From Promethearchaeota archaeon (GTDB taxonomy: Archaea; Asgardarchaeota; Lokiarchaeia; Sigyniarchaeales; SOKP01): a DNA stretch of 64,000 nt. Below are positions 29,101 through 40,514 of the stretch, piece by piece; the first letter of the stretch is position 1, and each line of letters opens with the position of its first letter. A program made the position numbers and the translations under genes. Below the pieces are notes generated by a model that saw only the letters and a program-made list of their open reading frames with translations, did not search any database and had not been told where the DNA came from. Location: contig JBHLLU010000010.1 of assembly GCA_048938895.1 (NCBI GenBank), positions 1 to 64,000 of the forward strand, in the 5' to 3' direction.

Positions 29101-31557
29101 TTATACTTCTTTTTCACATTTCCCAATTCCGGTGACATAATCATTTTCATACAATTTTATGACCCTTACACCCTTAGCGGTTCTATGGGTTATTCTAATT
29201 GAATCCACGGCAACTCTTATCATCTGTCCCTGTTCTGTACCAATTAATAAATCCATATGTTTAGCAATCTTAATAGCAATAACTTTATCATTTTTTTCTA
29301 CATCTAAAGTGATATTTTTAACTCCTTTTGCCCCTCGACCTGTCTTTCTATATTCTTTTACATAAGTTCTCTGACCATAACCATTTTCAGTTAAAGTCAA
29401 GATTATATCATCATCAGATACTAATAAAGAATCAATTACTTCATCACTTTCTCTTAAATCTACTCCCTTGACGCCCATTGAATTTCTTCCTAACTCTCTT
29501 AATTCAGATTCATCGAATCGAACTGCATATCCTAATTTTGTAGCAATGAAAATGTCCTCTAATTCATTAGATAATCTTTTAACACTAACTAGTTCATCAT
29601 CTGGTCTGATTCTCTGTGCTCTTACTCCTGTACTTTTAAATTTAGAAAACAATCTTAATGGCGTTTTCTTTATTATTCCTTTTTTAGTTGTCATTATTAG
29701 CATCTCATTTGTATTGAAATTATTAATAGGTATCATTGAAGATATCTTTTCTTCAGATTGTAGAGGTATAAAATTGATTATTGGTTTTCCCCGAGCAGTA
29801 CGTTTCTGAAGTGGAATGTCATAACATTTAATTGAATAAACTCTACCTTTTGAAGTAAAAACTAAAATTGTATCGTGTGTAGAACATACAAACAAATCTG
29901 TAATGAAATCTTCTTCTCTTACAGTCATGCCTTTCTTTCCACGGCCACCTCTTCCTTGTGTACGATATTGTTCAACTGAAGTTCTTTTTATATACTGATT
30001 TTTTGTAAAAATTACAATTGTGGGTTCATTTTTAATAAGATCTTTTGTTTCAATATCTTTAGGTGTATCTTCACCGCTGATTTCAAGTTCAGATTTCCTA
30101 GAATCTCCATATTTTTCATTCAATTCTCTGAGTTCCGTTTTTATAATATTTAATTGTAGCTGTTCACTTGCCAGAATTTTCTTGTATTCTGCTATGTTTT
30201 CTTTAAGTGACTTTTCTTCATCAACTAATTTTTGTTGTTCTAAATTTGTTAATCGTGACAATTGCATATTTAATATTGCTTGAACTTGTATTTCAGATAG
30301 ACTATATGCATCTATCAACTTAATTTTAGCTTCGTTTGTATCTTTTGCTTTTTTAATTATATCTATTACATTATCAATATCATTTAATGCTATAAGAAGA
30401 CCTTCTACTCTATGGAGACGATCCTCAGCTTTTCTAAGTTCAAATGCAACTCTCTTTTTGATGATAACGAGACGATGATTAATATATTCTTGAATAATCT
30501 CTTTTAGAGTAAGTATTTTAGGTTGTTTTCCATCATTAATCAATACTAAGTTAATAATATTAAAACTCGTGAACAGTTTTGTTCTCTTAAATAGGATGTT
30601 TTTAATAATAACTGGTTGAGCATTCTTAGTTAAATCGATAACAATACGCATTCCCTGCCGATCAGATTCGTCTCGCAAATCTCTAATATCTTTTAGAACT
30701 CCATCTTTTACCAGCTTTGCAATTGATTCTATTAATAAAGATTTATTTACTAAATAAGGAATTTCAGTAATAACTAAACTAGTTTTATCTCCTTTTACTT
30801 CAGTTTTGATTTTACCACTAATATTGACATTACCAATTCCCGTAGTGTAAGCATTATATATTCCATTTCTATCCGAGATAATCCCACCTGTTGGAAAGTC
30901 TGGTCCTTTAATAATTTCCATAAGTTCTTGAATTGAAATTTCTGGATCGTCAATGGTAGCAATAATACCTTCACAAATTTCGTTCAAATTATGAGGAGGC
31001 ATTGAAGTAGCCATCCCTACAGCAATACCTTTTGTACCGTTAATTAAGATATTAGGGATTTTGGCAGGTAAATAAAGAGGTTCAACTTTACTATCATCAA
31101 AATTATTATAAAATTCAACAGTGTCTTTGTATAAATCCTCAATCAGTTCATCTGAAATTCTAGAGAGTCTTGCTTCAGTATATCTGTAAGCTGCGGGATC
31201 ATCTCCATCAACAGAACCAAAATTACCTTGAGGATCAATGAGAGGATATCTTAAAGTAAAATCTTGTCCCATTCTTACAAGTGCTCCATATATAGCTCCG
31301 TCTCCATGAGGATGGTAATTACCTAGGACATCGCCCACTATCTTGGCACATTTAACATGGGGAGAACGTGCATTCCAACCATTTTCAGCCATGGCATAAA
31401 TAATTCTTTTCTGAACGGGTTTTAATCCATCTCTTATATCAGGAATAGCTCTACCAATAATGACTGACATGCTATAATCAATATAGCTACTAGCCATTTC
31501 ATCTTTTAGCAAAATATCTTCAATTTGTTCTGTAGTCAAAATATAACCCCTATTCAT
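29101..31557 (-). CDS. gyrA: DNA gyrase subunit A
   Basis: [23 protein letters not shown], GyrA-box QGRGGRG, beta-pinwheel repeats. Confidence 0.97.
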
Positions 31558-31585: not shown

Positions 31586-33660
31586 CTAAATATCTAAAAC
31601 ATTTACTTCATCAAAATTACTTATTATAAACTTTTTCCGGGCTTTGACTTCTTTACCCATTAATTTCGTAAACATCATATCATTTTCTAAATAGTCTTCA
31701 TAAGTAACTTTCTTTAGTTTCCTTGTATCTCGGTTCATTGTTGTAGAATAAAGTTCCTCAGCGTTCATCTCCCCAAGCCCTTTGTATCTTTGGGTTCGTA
31801 TCGAATTAGTCTCTTTTAATTTATGTTTTTTCTTTAATTCTTGAATATAATCATCCTTTTCTTTATCTGTATAGACATACTTATAGTCTTTTTTATAGAT
31901 TACTTTGTATAAGGGAGGACATGCTATATAGAGATGCCCTTTATCTATTATTGGACGCATATACCTAAAAAAGAAAGTGAGTAATAAAGTTTCTATATGA
32001 AATCCATCCACATCTGCATCCATAAGTAAGATCACTTTGTGATATCTCAGTTTGTTCAGGTCAAAGCTTTCCTCTGCGTCTTCTACTTCTTCAACTTCAG
32101 AATTCAATCCATTTGTACCATTAGTCTCATTCACTTCCTGAAACCCTACTCCGAGAGCTTTGATAATGGATTGGATTTCATTGTTTTGTAATATTTTATC
32201 TAACCGCGCTTTTTCTACATTTAAAATTTTGCCTCTAAGCGGAAGAATAGCCTGATAATTCCGATCTCTGCCTTGTTTGGCAGATCCTCCAGCAGAATTC
32301 CCTTCAACAATAAATATTTCAGCTTCTTCAGGATTATTTGAAGAACAATCAGCAAGTTTACCAGGCATTCGTGCATTATCTAATGCTGATTTTCTACGGA
32401 TTAAAGACCTCGCTTTTTGGGCAGCTTCACGAGCCAATTTAGCATTAATTGTTTTCAAAATAATTCTTTTAGCTGTTTGAGGGTGTTCTTCCAAATATTG
32501 GGTTAATCTATCTGTAACCATTTGACTAACGATTTGGCGAATTTCTGGATTGCCCAACTTAATTTTAGTTTGACTTTCAAATTGAGGATCAGGTAGTCTA
32601 ACCGAAATAACTGCTGAAAGTCCTTCTCTTGTATCACTTCCAGTTAATACATGGTCTTTATACTTCTTTTCCATATAACTTTCAATGTAAGAATTAAAGC
32701 CCCTCGTTAGCGCAGATTTAAAACCCGTAAGATGTGTTCCTCCCTCAATAGTGTTGATTGTATTGGCATAAGAGAGAATATTTGTTTGATAACCTTGGTT
32801 GTATTGAGCGGCAATTTCACAAATCACCGAACCATTCTTATCTTCATAAGAATCGCTTATATAAATAATATCATTATGTAAAGGTTGTTTGTCTTTATTC
32901 AAAAATGCTACAAATTCTTTTAATCCGCCTTCATAGTGAAAGTCTTCAACTTCATCATTAAATTTATCATGAAGTTCAAATCTCGTATGAGGATTAAGAA
33001 ATGCAAGCTCGCGCATTCTTGTGGTGATGGTATAAGCATTGAATATCTGCTCATTTGGATCATAATCAAAAATTGAATTATCTGGGTAAAATTTGATTTT
33101 AGTATAAGTATTTTTAGTTTTTATTGGTTTTATTTCTGGTTCTGATGCTTTTTTTCCTCTAGAAAATTTCTGGATATAACATAATCCATCACGACAGACT
33201 TCTACTTCCAACCATTCAGTTAAAGCATTCACAACCGAAAGCCCAACACCATGTAGTCCTCCTGAAATTTTATAACTCTTGCTATCAAATTTACCTCCAG
33301 CGTGTAGATGTTCCATTATTACTTCAAGGGCAGGTCTCTTATATTCAGGATGATCATCAATAGGAATACCTCGACCATTATCAGCTATTTGAACTGAATT
33401 GTCTTTATAAAGGGTAACTTTTATCTCGTCGGCATATCCCCCTATAGCTTCGTCAACAGAATTATCAAGCACCTCAAAAATTAGATGATGAAGTCCTTTC
33501 TTCCCTTGATCGCCGATGTACATTGCGGGCCTCTTTCGATAGCGACTTAGCGCGATTCGCGCATCTCCTTCAATTTTTATGAAGAAAAGTTTACGCCGTC
33601 AAGGCCCTTCAATACTTTGATATCATCAGCGTCGTAGGAACTATTTTTTTTCTCAACCAT
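31586..33660 (-). CDS. gyrB: DNA gyrase subunit B, split: exon 1 33660-33592, exon 2 33538-31586 (673 aa if joined)
   Basis: EVLDNSVDE, DNGRGIP, GGLHGVG, EGNSA, PLRGK, DADVDG, RYKGLGEM; N-terminus MVEKKNSSYDADDIKVLKGLDGV lies upstream in another frame. Confidence 0.95.
33539..33591 (-). other. Putative 53-nt bulge-helix-bulge intron in gyrB mRNA
   Basis: GGCG/CGCU 4-bp helix flanked by 3-nt bulges UAA and AUC, intron helix ACUU/AAGU, exon helix GGGCCUU/GAGGCCC; removal restores GV|RKRP. Confidence 0.85.
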
Positions 33661-33950
33661 AAGAATTCGATTTTTCCCTTATTATGTAAGGTTAAATTTA
33701 TCTAAATTGAACTTAAGTGATAATTTAACGGTTTACAATATATGAATAGAATTTATCACTTTTAAATGTAGGTACATTTTTTCATTGTTTTTAATTGTTC
33801 AAAAATAACAAATATTCAATATAATCTTCCAATTCTTTTGAATCATCGATTTAACTCACTAGATTAGTGAATTAGACAATTATTCTATTTAGATTGGTTC
33901 TAACTGCCCAGATTTTCGGAAAAGATTTTTTTCATAAAAATAGAGATCTT

Positions 33951-34811
33951 TTAATTCTTTCTGATTTCCTCAGCCATTTTTACCATTTCAATGAGTTGAT
34001 TATCAATATCATGAGTTCGAATAATGTGAGCTCCATTATATACTGCTATTGCTGTTGAAGAGAGTGTTCCATTCAGTCTATCTTCAGGATCAGGGATATC
34101 TAGGGTAGTACCGATAAAAGATTTTCTTGAAATGGCCACAAGAACAGGGAGATTTAATTTTCGAAGTTTTCTAAGATTATTTATTATTTTTAGATCATAA
34201 ATATGAATTTTTTTTTCAACCCATTTGCCAATTCCAGGATCTAAAATGACTAAATTTTTATTATAACCGTTAGATTTAAGGTGTTTTATGGTCTTCTTAA
34301 ATTCATATATAATTTCCTCAATTGTGCATAAATCGCCGGGGAATTTTTTTGATGCCATTAATATAATAGGAATTTTATTCTTAATTATAAAGTTCTCAAG
34401 CATTGGATCAGTTTTTAAACAACTCACATCATTGATTATAATTTTTTTGTCATATTCCATGGAAATATTATAAGCGACTTCAGCAACTCGAGCATACTGG
34501 GTATCTATAGATATTATAATCTTATTAGAAATATTTTTACAAACATTTTCCATAGCTGATTGAAGCCGCTCAATCTCTTCTTCGATCGTTATTTTTTGAG
34601 ACCAAGGAGCGGTAGACCGAGCTCCTAAGTCTAACATAGTAGCCCCATTTTTAATCATTTGTCGTGTTGCATTCTCTAAAGATTTTATGTCAGAATAGAC
34701 CGATCCTTGATAGAAACTCTCGGGACTAAGATTTAACACGCCCATTATTACAGTAGGGTGATCATCTCCGATTTCTAAGATGTCATATAAATTCATATAA
34801 ATTTTTTTCAT
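33951..34811 (-). CDS. folP: Dihydropteroate synthase
   Basis: MGVLNLSPESFY, DLGARSTAP, SIDT, INDVS, DPGIG, SRKSFI, RTHD. Confidence 0.92.
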   Translation of the reverse strand: MKKIYMNLYDILEIGDDHPTVIMGVLNLSPESFYQGSVYSDIKSLENATRQMIKNGATMLDLGARSTAPWSQKITIEEEIERLQSAMENVCKNISNKIIISIDTQYARVAEVAYNISMEYDKKIIINDVSCLKTDPMLENFIIKNKIPIILMASKKFPGDLCTIEEIIYEFKKTIKHLKSNGYNKNLVILDPGIGKWVEKKIHIYDLKIINNLRKLRKLNLPVLVAISRKSFIGTTLDIPDPEDRLNGTLSSTAIAVYNGAHIIRTHDIDNQLIEMVKMAEEIRKN

Positions 34812-38613: not shown

Positions 38614-40092
38614 TTGAGTGGTAATTATGAAGATGTAATAATTGGATTGGAAGTCCATATTCAACTTACTAATTTAAAGACAAAACTGTTTTGTAGTTGT
38701 AATGCTGATTATCGAGGTGCTTATCCAAACACACATAATTGCCCAATCTGTTTAGGATTACCAGGTTCTTTACCTGTTATTAATAAAAAAGCTATTGAAT
38801 TTGCTACTAGACTTGGATTAGCACTAGACTGTAAATTCAATGATACGACCTACTTCTTTCGAAAGAATTATTTCTATTGTGATCTTCCAAAAGGATTTCA
38901 GATATCTCAATATAATAAAGCAGGAGGAAGAGCTTTTGCCGATAAGGGTATAATTAATATCAAAATTAATGAGACTAAGAAAGCAATTCAGTTAAATAGA
39001 ATACATTTAGAAGAAGATCCCGCAAGATTAGTGCATAAGGGAAGTATTGCTACGTCTCCATACACTTTAGTTGATTATAATCGATCTGGTGTTTGTCTTA
39101 TCGAAATTGTAACGGAACCAGTGATTAGTTCTCCAGAAGAGGCGAGAGAATTCCTAAAGCAATTAAAATCAATCGTTCAATATACAGGAATATCAGATTT
39201 AGATTTAACTGGTGCTGCTCGAGTAGATGCAAATATATCAATCAAGGGACATGAGCGTAGTGAAGTTAAAAACATTAGTAGTTTCAAGGAAGTAGAACGT
39301 GCATTAAAATGGGAAATTCAGAGGCAGAAGAATTTAATAAAACGAGGAAAGACTCTAATTCAGGAAACAAGACACTGGGATGATAAAAGAAGAATTACAA
39401 TCTCATTAAGGACAAAAGAATTTGAAGAAGACTATCGTTATTTTCCAGAACAAGATTTAGTTCCAATAATAATTCAAGAAGATTTCATTCAAAAAGTTAA
39501 AAATGAATTACCAGAAATGCCAAATGAGAGAGCTATTAGACTTCATATGGACTACAATTTATCAGAATTTGATTCAGAGAATTTAGTGCTTGATAAAGAC
39601 ATTGCAGATTTCTATGAAAATGGTGTGAATTCCGATCCATCTTTTGGTACAAGTGAATATAAGCAATTCTGCAATTGGCTAATGAATGATATTTCACGTT
39701 ATTTAAATGAACATAATAAAACGATAAAAGATACAAAATTGCATTCGAAACAATTAGTAGACTTAATTAATTATATTAATGAAGGTAAGATTACAACAAA
39801 AATTGCAAAATCCTTCATAAGTGAGATGTTAGAAGGCACTTCAATTTCTAATATAATTGAAAAAAAAGGCAAAAAAAGAATTTCTGATGAAGAAGTCATT
39901 GAAAAGATTTCTGAAGAAGCCATTCAAGAAAATCCAAAAATCATCGAGGATTGTCAAAAAAATCCAAGAGCTATTGAAGCCTTAATAGGAAAAGTGATGG
40001 CTAAAACCAAAGGTCAAGCCGATCCGGAGATTACAAGAAGAATCATGTTTAATCTGTTGAAAAAAATAGGGATTGACTTTTCAAAATTATAA
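38614..40092 (+). CDS. gatB: Asp/Glu-tRNA amidotransferase subunit B
   Basis: IGLEVHIQL, RKNYFY, HLEED, DYNRSG, DYRYFPE. Confidence 0.96.
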   Translation: MSGNYEDVIIGLEVHIQLTNLKTKLFCSCNADYRGAYPNTHNCPICLGLPGSLPVINKKAIEFATRLGLALDCKFNDTTYFFRKNYFYCDLPKGFQISQYNKAGGRAFADKGIINIKINETKKAIQLNRIHLEEDPARLVHKGSIATSPYTLVDYNRSGVCLIEIVTEPVISSPEEAREFLKQLKSIVQYTGISDLDLTGAARVDANISIKGHERSEVKNISSFKEVERALKWEIQRQKNLIKRGKTLIQETRHWDDKRRITISLRTKEFEEDYRYFPEQDLVPIIIQEDFIQKVKNELPEMPNERAIRLHMDYNLSEFDSENLVLDKDIADFYENGVNSDPSFGTSEYKQFCNWLMNDISRYLNEHNKTIKDTKLHSKQLVDLINYINEGKITTKIAKSFISEMLEGTSISNIIEKKGKKRISDEEVIEKISEEAIQENPKIIEDCQKNPRAIEALIGKVMAKTKGQADPEITRRIMFNLLKKIGIDFSKL

Positions 40093-40160
40093 AAATTAAT
40101 AATAAAGTTATGAATCTTAGGAAATAAGATCTAAATTTTCCAAAAAAAAAGAGAAAAAAA

Positions 40161-40514
40161 TTATAGCCTTTTTCTAAGTTCTGTACTGGCAGCATCCAAT
40201 TTAAGGTTGATAATTCCTAACTTGGCTTCTTTTGTGGTTATTATCGTGAGAATATTACCCTCAATTTCACTGAATAGTATTTTTCCCTTCTCAGATTCTA
40301 TTATTGCACTAAAAAATTGACCCTGCTCTAATTCTTTAGTCGCTCTTTGACTTGCTTTTAAAATTAATGTCACCATAGCTGCTACAGCTTCTGGGTCCAC
40401 CCATCCAGGTAATGCGCTACCTCTTATTAAACCAAATTTTTCAATTAAAGCCGCACCGTGAACTCCTTTAATTGCCTTTAAAGAATCAAGAATTTCTGTT
40501 ATTCTTTCACTCAT
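40161..40514 (-). CDS. Roadblock/LC7 (MglB-like) protein
   Basis: IKGVHGAALI..GL, DPEAVAAM, IIESEKGKI, AKLGII. Confidence 0.88.
   Translation of the reverse strand: MSERITEILDSLKAIKGVHGAALIEKFGLIRGSALPGWVDPEAVAAMVTLILKASQRATKELEQGQFFSAIIESEKGKILFSEIEGNILTIITTKEAKLGIINLKLDAASTELRKRL

Follow-up and report, generated by a model that had tools for sequence, protein, structure and literature searches.

The 64,000-nt stretch of DNA analyzed here (the window; positions 1 to 64,000 of contig JBHLLU010000010.1 in the Promethearchaeota archaeon assembly GCA_048938895.1) carries the genes for both DNA gyrase subunits on its minus strand, with gyrA following a gyrB gene that is split into two coding pieces. 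The 53 nt separating these pieces (33591 to 33539) probably represent an archaeal bulge-helix-bulge (BHB) intron within the gyrB coding sequence. The features of the locus and of the proposed fold are given in Table 1.

Translation of gyrB from ATG 33660 gave MVEKKNSSYDADDIKVLKGLDGV, and the continuation RKRPAMYIG was found from 33538 in another frame. An earlier note on this DNA, made from the letters and their open reading frames (ORFs), had described this arrangement, and both the sequence and the ORF translations bore it out. The same note had the first frame running directly into a TAA, which was not the case: the UAA at 33593 to 33591 is out of frame, and exon 1, if left unspliced, continues for four further codons (N-F-S-S) to its actual stop, TAA 33579 to 33577.

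The 645-amino-acid ORF of exon 2 was identified as DNA gyrase subunit B by NCBIfam (NF004189, 860 bits), with an alignment that begins only at profile position 21 to 30. The N-terminal arm is absent from this ORF and, as had been claimed, a start at the internal ATG 33523 would lose it, leaving a product without profile positions 1 to 20 or 29. When the 23 amino acids of exon 1 were compared with PDB sequences, all 16 matches were GyrB N-termini and none were other proteins. These matches spanned chain residues ∼2 to 21 (14 to 33 in one N-terminally extended chain), and all ended in KGLDAV. Exon 1 supplies the arm missing from exon 2, so the two pieces together match the gyrB family including its N-terminal arm. 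This arm (Tyr5 and Ile10 in Escherichia coli numbering) is required for ATP-dependent dimerization of GyrB. The genome (4.65 Mb in 174 contigs; 98.7% complete, with 7.5% estimated contamination) contained a single gyrB.

Table 1. Features of the gyrB-gyrA locus and of the predicted BHB fold (window positions)
Feature	Position	Strand	Remarks
gyrB exon 1	33592..33660	-	23 codons, ATG to Val codon GUA; encodes the GyrB N-terminal arm
53-nt insert, predicted BHB intron	33539..33591	-	predicted cuts after UA of bulge 1 and after AU of bulge 2
gyrB exon 2	31586..33538	-	opens with RKRPA, then 645-amino-acid ORF (ATG 33523 to stop 31586)
gyrA	29101..31557	-	intact; begins 28 nt downstream of the gyrB stop; NCBIfam gyrA, 1060 bits
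Central helix H, 5′ strand GGCG	33594..33597	-	exonic: Gly codon and first Val base; pairs with 33541-33544
Central helix H, 3′ strand CGCU	33541..33544	-	intronic
Bulge 1, UAA	33591..33593	-	predicted 5′ cut between 33592 and 33591
Bulge 2, AUC	33538..33540	-	predicted 3′ cut between 33539 and 33538
Intron-side helix h′, 5′ strand ACUU	33587..33590	-	pairs with 33545-33548
Intron-side helix h′, 3′ strand AAGU	33545..33548	-	pairs with 33587-33590
Exon-side outer helix, 5′ strand GGGCCUU	33601..33607	-	K-G-L codons; 7 bp with 33527-33533; in the minimum-energy fold
Exon-side outer helix, 3′ strand GAGGCCC	33527..33533	-	K-R-P codons
A+U-rich first inner hairpin, UCUUCA...UGAAGG	33567..33585	-	sequence variable among relatives
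G+C-rich inner hairpin, GCGCG-AUU-CGCGC	33550..33562	-	nearly invariant among long introns

Inserts at one codon boundary in related gyrB genes

A search of the same order covered 41 genomes and identified gyrB in 35. Among 20 loci from the same genus, six had a 53-nt insert in this position and 14 were uninterrupted, as were all 10 loci from other families of the order. A named genome collection contributed 80 gyrB loci, 77 with a readable N-terminus, and 16 of these had an insert. Three loci (L100, L101, and L103) were left out since the contig ends before the N-terminus, and L022, which failed the regular expression used for exon 1, was uninterrupted by eye. Pooled, the insert was present between the GV and R-x-RP codons in 22 of the 106 loci with a recognizable junction. 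These 22 loci represent 18 distinct sequences (eleven of 53 nt, one of 52 nt, three of 33 nt, one of 31 nt, and two of 30 nt), and the intronless gyrB genes represent 79.

A covariance model of the long form (R1), which would miss short forms, was also scanned over 54 same-genus genomes and gave exactly one match in each of 12. Eleven of the matches were confirmed to lie at gyrB (G000, the genome studied here, and five known loci by coordinates, and five new ones by script), and the twelfth (G042), read by eye, proved to be a 19th distinct insert sequence. All 19 distinct carriers are Loki-type Asgard genomes with the insert at an identical codon boundary, and no insert was found in the bacterial, Methanosarcinales, or other-family gyrB genes of the set examined. 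The alignment of the gyrB 5′ region across Asgard genomes that the earlier note had called for therefore returned 19 distinct carriers and ∼79 uninterrupted sequences, together with the covariation described below. Base pair counts cover 18 sequences, as L127 was found after they had been made, and comparisons of intron-bearing with intronless sequences are uncorrected for relatedness.

The insert appeared to be confined to this site. Searches of the same genome using nhmmer with a profile of the long intron identified the gyrB site only, and blastn-short with the 53 nt returned this site plus short A+T-rich chance matches. Because the gyrB site was the sole nhmmer match and each positive genome gave one R1 match, the intron does not qualify as a dispersed repeat at the sensitivity of these searches. 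No Rfam family matched the insert, and a chance CRISPR-DR match (E value, 4.2) lay outside it. Group I or group II introns and inteins were considered and rejected, given that the inserts are 30 to 53 nt in length, are not all multiples of 3, contain in-frame stops, and lack an Rfam match.

Exon 1 retains the signature of a protein-coding sequence wherever the insert is present. Across the 18 intron-bearing sequences, pairwise differences at the first, second, and third codon positions of exon 1 numbered 249, 139, and 1,127, respectively, and 925 codon differences were synonymous compared with 365 that were nonsynonymous. By these counts, exon 1 is under coding selection in the intron-bearing lineages. 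The five insert lengths cover all three classes modulo 3. The unspliced exon 1 frame stops after one to five more codons in all 18 sequences, and in nine of them an in-frame stop stands directly before exon 2.

These observations bear on whether the locus could be a decaying pseudogene, an assembly artifact, or a gene read by programmed frameshifting through the insert, any of which is barely conceivable. Frameshifting could draw on the exon 2 frame of G000, which extends open for 20 codons ahead of exon 2, far enough to overlap the end of exon 1. However, the stops directly before exon 2 in half of the sequences, combined with the termination of the exon 1 frame within five codons, make such read-through impossible. 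An artifact might be suspected given the estimated contamination of the genome bin, but the insert was present in 19 distinct assemblies whose record titles indicate several projects. As for decay, the earlier note had raised the case of a second intact gyrB with this copy degenerating; only one gyrB was found, and both of its exons as well as gyrA are intact and conserved.

Fold and covariation of the insert

The base pairs listed in the earlier note were each checked base by base, and all were present (GGCG/CGCU, ACUU/AAGU, C33598-G33537, and GGGCCUU/GAGGCCC). On its exon side, bulge 2 is closed only by C33598-G33537, which is followed by a 2-by-3 internal loop. In the canonical tRNA intron at position 37/38, the anticodon stem (27-31/39-43) forms the exon helix, and it is this case that requires the polarity adopted here, in which, on either strand, the bulge follows the central helix on its 3′ side. 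The 96-nt region folded with a z score of −3.2, and none of 200 shuffled sequences was equally stable. When the 53 nt were shuffled with the exons held fixed, 225 of 200,000 trials gave complete pairing of the central helix and h′ in one or another of three cut registers. The best fold containing the BHB had a ΔG of −31.5 kcal/mol, compared with −34.7 kcal/mol for the minimum free energy (MFE) structure.

For comparison across relatives, sequences were anchored on the boundaries defined by coding. The central helix was fully paired (4/4) in 15 of the 18 distinct sequences, and also in L127. Overall, 95.8% of its cells were paired (97.9% in the 12 long sequences), and its 3′ strand occurred as CGCU, CGCC, CGUU, or CGUC, variants that preserve G-C or G-U pairs. 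The intron-side helix h′ had 4 to 5 bp in 17 of the 18 sequences, with 93% of cells paired (98.3% in the long sequences). Four of its five pairs had changed on both sides, and the fourth pair was seen as C-G, U-A, G-C, A-U, G-U, and U-G. Taken together, the nine central and h′ pairs were 94.3% paired, compared with 20 to 47% when the strands were slid by one to three columns (37 to 42% for the slid registers in the 12 long sequences). The covariation score was 0.347 against 0.221 for shuffled data, and none of 500 shuffles reached either the observed pairing or the observed covariation score.

RNAalifold, run without hints on the long (n = 12) and short (n = 6) sets separately, predicted the 4-bp helix, the 5′ bulge of 3 nt, h′, and a displaced exon-exon helix, in the same register that the earlier note had proposed. 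The 3′ bulge was part of a larger unpaired stretch in these consensus folds. The displaced helix between exon 1 and exon 2 comprises 4 to 7 bp, is set outward by a few nucleotides, and includes some compensatory changes. Codon usage at the junction also fits the pairing, as the Gly codon was GGY in 18 of 18 intron-bearing sequences compared with 32 of 79 intronless ones.

Inside the intron, the G+C-rich inner hairpin had 93% of its cells paired and was predicted de novo by RNAalifold in the long set. The A+U-rich first hairpin had 79% of cells paired, with two pairs changed on both sides, and was absent from the short forms of 30 to 33 nt. In the MAFFT alignment, the short forms are without a 20-column stretch that begins in the loop of the first hairpin and ends in that of the second. 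The intron of the genome studied here also contains a GGAG followed by a five-codon mini-ORF on the minus strand (33547 to 33568; AUG 33564 to UAA 33549-33547). Many relatives likewise have an AUG here, with varying frame and length.

Some variation was noted in the junction codons themselves. A few relatives depart from R-K-R-P, in which Lys is normally invariant. Among those with the intron, L004 and L035 have Leu at this position and L127 has Val, and Leu is also found there in the intronless L050. The L-E/D codons of exon 1 are paired with R-R-R codons (CGU CGA CGC) in several of the sequences that contain the intron, so the choice of codons at the junction may be influenced by RNA pairing.

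A candidate splicing reaction and its machinery

Available excerpts of PMC2738675 place cleavage of BHB motifs between the second and third nucleotides of each bulge. Applied to the gyrB inserts, this rule removes exactly the stretch between the Val and Arg codons and restores GV/R-x-RP in all 19 distinct sequences. The genome encodes the enzymes that such a reaction would use. Two paralogues of the tRNA-splicing endonuclease EndA (202 and 200 amino acids; contig C83, 69404 to 70012, plus strand, and contig C123, 60543 to 61145, minus strand) were both above the TIGR00324 cutoff, with two PF01974 matches of 101.5 and 68.1 bits, and one of the paralogues weakly resembles a β-subunit model. A single RtcB ligase (566.5 bits) is encoded on contig C5 at 38935 to 40242. 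The presence of two EndA paralogues is consistent with the (αβ)2 EndA of Asgard archaea, in which an L1 loop has been linked to broad specificity according to the accessible part of PMC5829648. ARAGORN identified only 24 tRNAs in the genome, with 13 flagged as containing introns. One call, a "tRNA-Pyl" with a 1,828-nt intron on contig C124, was clearly spurious. The small number of tRNAs and their many flagged introns are consistent with the heavily interrupted Asgard tRNA genes reported in the available text of a preprint (10.64898/2026.10.13.758758), and many tRNA genes of this genome are probably hidden by multiple or noncanonical introns.

Considered together, these features suggest that the 53 nt are an archaeal BHB intron in the coding sequence of the only gyrB, removed from the mRNA by EndA and RtcB; the probability of this reading is put at about 0.82. 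The earlier note's proposal that gyrase expression depends on mRNA splicing by the tRNA machinery gains support from the position of the insert, the covariation, the cut rule, coding selection on exon 1, and the presence of the enzymes. In the pre-mRNA, the GGCG at the end of exon 1 would pair with the intronic CGCU to form a 4-bp central helix, with a 3-nt bulge located 3′ of the helix on each strand. The ACUU/AAGU helix would close the first bulge, and a looser helix between exon 1 and exon 2 would close the second. A heteromeric, two-paralogue EndA could then cut after the second nucleotide of each bulge, and RtcB would join the exons such that the Val codon directly precedes the Arg codon. 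The spliced product would be a 673-residue GyrB with the ATP-lid and dimerization arm, whereas unspliced RNA would yield a 27-residue peptide and, at best, an arm-less GyrB from the internal AUG 33523. From sequence we infer cutting and ligation, the exact cut sites, and any regulatory role; full-length gyrase most likely requires splicing of the mRNA by protein enzymes.

Several results weigh against the proposed splicing or limit its precision. Within the central helix, a single G·A mismatch was present in three of the 18 sequences (L003, L070, and L076), and the changes are one-sided only, because the 5′ strand is fixed by the Gly codon and the G of the Val codon. In h′, the short form L098 had two mismatches and L127 had a C·A mismatch. 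The single-sequence MFE structure keeps the central and outer helices, but a longer hairpin replaces h′. On the exon side, the pair beside the 3′ bulge was standard in only five of the 12 long sequences, and the ungapped helix was 57.5% paired. Exon-side pairs averaged 5.44 of 7 in intron-bearing and 4.74 of 7 in intronless sequences of the same clade (P = 0.014, without phylogenetic correction), and this complementarity is largely inherent in the codons involved (Gly GGN versus Pro CCN, among others). Furthermore, the four-fold degeneracy of Val codons means that coding locates the cut sites no more closely than ∼1 nt. In the gyrB of this genome, offsets of −1, 0, and +1 all keep V-R-K, so the earlier claim that the cut rule yields G-V-R-K stands as far as the restored junction is concerned, with the splice sites themselves defined by coding only within one nucleotide.

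Two genome-wide comparisons belong with these points. In the genome's own tRNA introns, both the correct and a mirrored motif model were matched, and ARAGORN intron calls there are unreliable. The only perfect motif was that of tRNA-Ser(GGA) on contig C51 (4/4, 3/3, and 3/3 pairs, compared with 2, 1, and 2 for the mirrored model). Because this control matched both models, the textbook tRNA intron at 37/38 is the basis for the polarity assigned to the motif. A BHB scan of the kind suggested in the earlier note was run on this genome, requiring 4/4 central pairs, 4/4 intron-side pairs, an intron of 18 to 150 nt, and an excision that fuses two open frames, each of 50 codons or more, which the unspliced sequence leaves broken. 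It returned 4,423 candidates, compared with 4,343 and 4,383 in two wrong-register nulls. No excess was seen at any stringency of the exon helix, real introns were inseparable from fusions of adjacent genes, and micro-exons such as gyrB exon 1 are invisible to this design. Since the scan had no power and was blind to micro-exons, it provides no evidence that the gyrB intron is unique.

The earlier description of a textbook BHB was thus too strong, given that most relatives have a weak exon-side helix beside the 3′ bulge or none at all. Judged by its pairing, the motif is a relaxed, HBh′-like one, as in cbf5 pre-mRNAs and noncanonical tRNA introns. According to the available excerpts of PMC2738675 and PMC5829648, relaxed motifs are cleaved only by heteromeric or ε-type EndA. 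From the codons flanking the insert, the junction looks like a proto-splice site that already offers half a motif.

An alternative without splicing is unlikely. It would make exon 1 an upstream ORF or leader peptide of 27 codons and have translation of an arm-less GyrB begin at AUG 33523 or, in some relatives, at an AUG inside the insert. This gene model is the one that gene callers would give. An AUG (the M of MYIG) lies five codons into exon 2 in nearly all relatives, preceded by a purine-rich stretch, and three of the six short inserts (L070, L076, and L098) contain an AUG in frame with exon 2 and no intervening stop. However, an in-frame AUG within the insert was absent or blocked by a stop in 15 of the 18 sequences. 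Moreover, this alternative leaves exon 1 as a GyrB arm that matched only residues ∼2 to 21 of GyrB in PDB, that is under coding selection in 18 intron-bearing lineages, and that is needed for ATP-dependent dimerization. The insert also keeps BHB geometry with covariation, which a plain spacer would not need.

Translational bypassing, in which ribosomes would hop over the insert, is hardly credible here. In phage T4 gene 60, a topoisomerase subunit gene, the ribosome skips 50 nt, and the gyrB inserts resemble that gap in size (30 to 53 nt), in having stem-loops within it, and in their topoisomerase context. The take-off codon in gyrB would be GUA or GUU, yet the insert ends in UAU, CAA, CAG, UAG, UAA, or UAC and in no case in GUN. 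Ribosome hopping is excluded on this ground, as a matching landing codon was lacking in all 18 sequences. The codon following take-off was also a non-stop codon in 18 of 18, and what the inserts conserve, a helix of two strands with 3-nt bulges opposed to each other, is no requirement of hopping.

Removal of the insert from RNA by an endonuclease other than EndA (with joining other than by RtcB), or through cuts elsewhere, is very unlikely. The exon-side helix is weak, the 3′ bulge is noncanonical, the cut sites are known only to ∼1 nt, and EndA cleavage is a prediction. Set against this, the spacing and polarity match those of EndA substrates (4 bp between two 3-nt bulges), and the standard cut rule yields the right junction in every one of the 19 sequences. 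Relaxed motifs of this kind are documented substrates of heteromeric EndA in cbf5 pre-mRNA (PMC2738675, available excerpts). At 30 to 53 nt, the inserts are too small for self-splicing introns and, as noted above, match no Rfam family.

Distribution, surroundings, and comparison with known systems

Quick maximum-likelihood trees were inferred with IQ-TREE from a 339-column protein alignment of the first ∼339 GyrB residues, with 11 non-Loki rows left out of the second tree. All intron-bearing gyrB genes fell inside one Loki clade of 79 rows. Within it, the long and short intron forms were each clustered (two changes), but presence versus absence required no fewer than 16 changes (of which well-supported branches force 13), compared with a mean of 16.5 for shuffled labels. 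Several intron-bearing gyrB genes were sister to intronless ones, such as the gyrB of this genome and L032. The patchy presence could reflect many precise losses, exchange of alleles by recombination, or regain, and the one short protein segment used does not choose among the three. Eight gyrB genes nesting in the Loki clade (L041, L066, L035, L063, L069, L073, L088, and L093) come from records titled as other phyla (Thor-, Odin-, Hermod-, and Hodarchaeota, and one "Nanopelagicaceae bacterium"), which suggests mislabeled or mixed public bins.

The p-distance of the intron was 0.26 overall and 0.16 in its 3′ part, compared with 0.44 at third codon positions of the gene. These values suggest constraint beyond the BHB, above all on the 3′ part with the G+C-rich hairpin. 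Intron and gene distances were uncorrelated (r = 0.08 and −0.06; 55 pairs from 11 introns of 53 nt, with third positions near saturation), a comparison too weak to bear on horizontal movement. A broader scenario, which we regard as speculative and rather doubtful, would combine the splicing of a Loki-type Asgard mRNA by protein-only tRNA machinery with recurrent loss, regain, or exchange of the intron at a single proto-splice site, where half the motif is provided by the Gly/Val and Arg/Pro codons, and with a function of its own for the G+C-rich hairpin. Gyrase output might then be tied to splicing capacity or RNA folding, or the excised intron might persist as a stable circular RNA.

The sequence surrounding the split gene was also inspected. 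The ∼130 nt upstream of the gyrB start (33661 to 33800, minus strand; also in L003 to L021) are conserved in blocks across the genus. These include an A/T-rich TTTAAA box ∼115 to 135 nt before the ATG and another block reading ...GTAAA-CGTTAAATTATCAC..., and they may represent a promoter plus a long conserved leader. Directly upstream of gyrB lies a 286-amino-acid ORF (33951 to 34811, minus strand) that by eye is putatively pterin-binding/dihydropteroate synthase-like. The cbf5 gene of this genome, the homolog of the best-known interrupted archaeal mRNA, was uninterrupted, matching TIGR00425 over positions 5 to 319 with no internal stops (contig C5, 23828 to 24775, minus strand). The same contig carries RtcB and two intron-flagged tRNAs (Lys and Thr).

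In the accessible text of PMC7714728 (2020), the cbf5 mRNA intron is the only one reported besides those of tRNA and rRNA, and an intron in the 5′ untranslated region (5′ UTR) of HVO_1309 is added; PMC10485636 (2023), also available in part, states that the archaeal endonuclease splices "at least two archaeal genes." The searchable full-text literature, which mostly lacks subscription papers and the supplements that may list predictions (for example, those cited in PMC2738675), yielded no BHB intron in gyrB or in an Asgard mRNA, and the earlier note's statement that no such example had been described agrees with this. The terms "mRNA," "gyrase," and "cbf5" did not occur in the available text of the Asgard tRNA preprint (10.64898/2026.10.13.758758).

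Splicing of an archaeal coding sequence by EndA and RtcB is documented only for cbf5 of some Crenarchaeota, to which one Haloferax 5′ UTR can be added. If the gyrB reading is true, the mechanism would reach a new phylum, the one closest to eukaryotes, and a central DNA topology enzyme that is single-copy in this genome. Public gene calls of these gyrB genes would probably be N-terminally truncated. The inserts would also offer a natural allele series (no intron, 30 to 33 nt, and 52 to 53 nt) for the gain, shrinkage, and loss of a BHB intron, as well as a small natural substrate with which to probe Asgard EndA specificity.

The closest known counterpart is the cbf5 intron of Crenarchaeota (Desulfurococcales and Sulfolobales; Watanabe 2002, Yokobori 2009), described in the available excerpts of PMC2738675. 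Like the gyrB insert, it is a short BHB-type intron in a coding sequence, usually with a relaxed motif, with predicted cuts between the second and third bulge nucleotides by a heteromeric EndA, and it has been lost in some lineages and has led gene callers to misannotate the gene. The gyrB case differs in its host gene and phylum (Asgard; Promethearchaeota), in the position of the intron after codon 23, which leaves exon 1 as a micro-exon, and in the two size classes, the longer of which contains a conserved G+C-rich hairpin. Its presence is also far patchier, with at least 13 to 16 changes on the gene tree. Splicing of cbf5 has been demonstrated by cDNA and in vitro cleavage, whereas that of gyrB is predicted from sequence. 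The HVO_1309 intron of Haloferax volcanii is similarly an EndA substrate in an mRNA rather than in a tRNA or rRNA but lies in a 5′ UTR and is processed by a homodimeric EndA (PMC7714728 and PMC10485636, accessible parts). In contrast, the gyrB insert breaks the reading frame, and splicing would be needed for the protein sequence.

Archaeal tRNA BHB introns share with the gyrB insert the two 3-nt bulges around a 4-bp helix, half of which comes from the exon, and presumably the same enzymes, but the gyrB host is an mRNA with no tRNA body to aid recognition. Phage T4 gene 60 is likewise a topoisomerase-subunit coding sequence interrupted by ∼50 untranslated nucleotides. Unlike gene 60, gyrB has neither matched take-off and landing codons nor a stop directly after take-off, and its conserved feature is the BHB fold. 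Compared with these systems, the gyrB insert would belong to a kind already known from cbf5, the BHB intron of an archaeal mRNA. Its gene and its phylum would both be new for this kind, its micro-exon is unusual, and its distribution is unusually dynamic.

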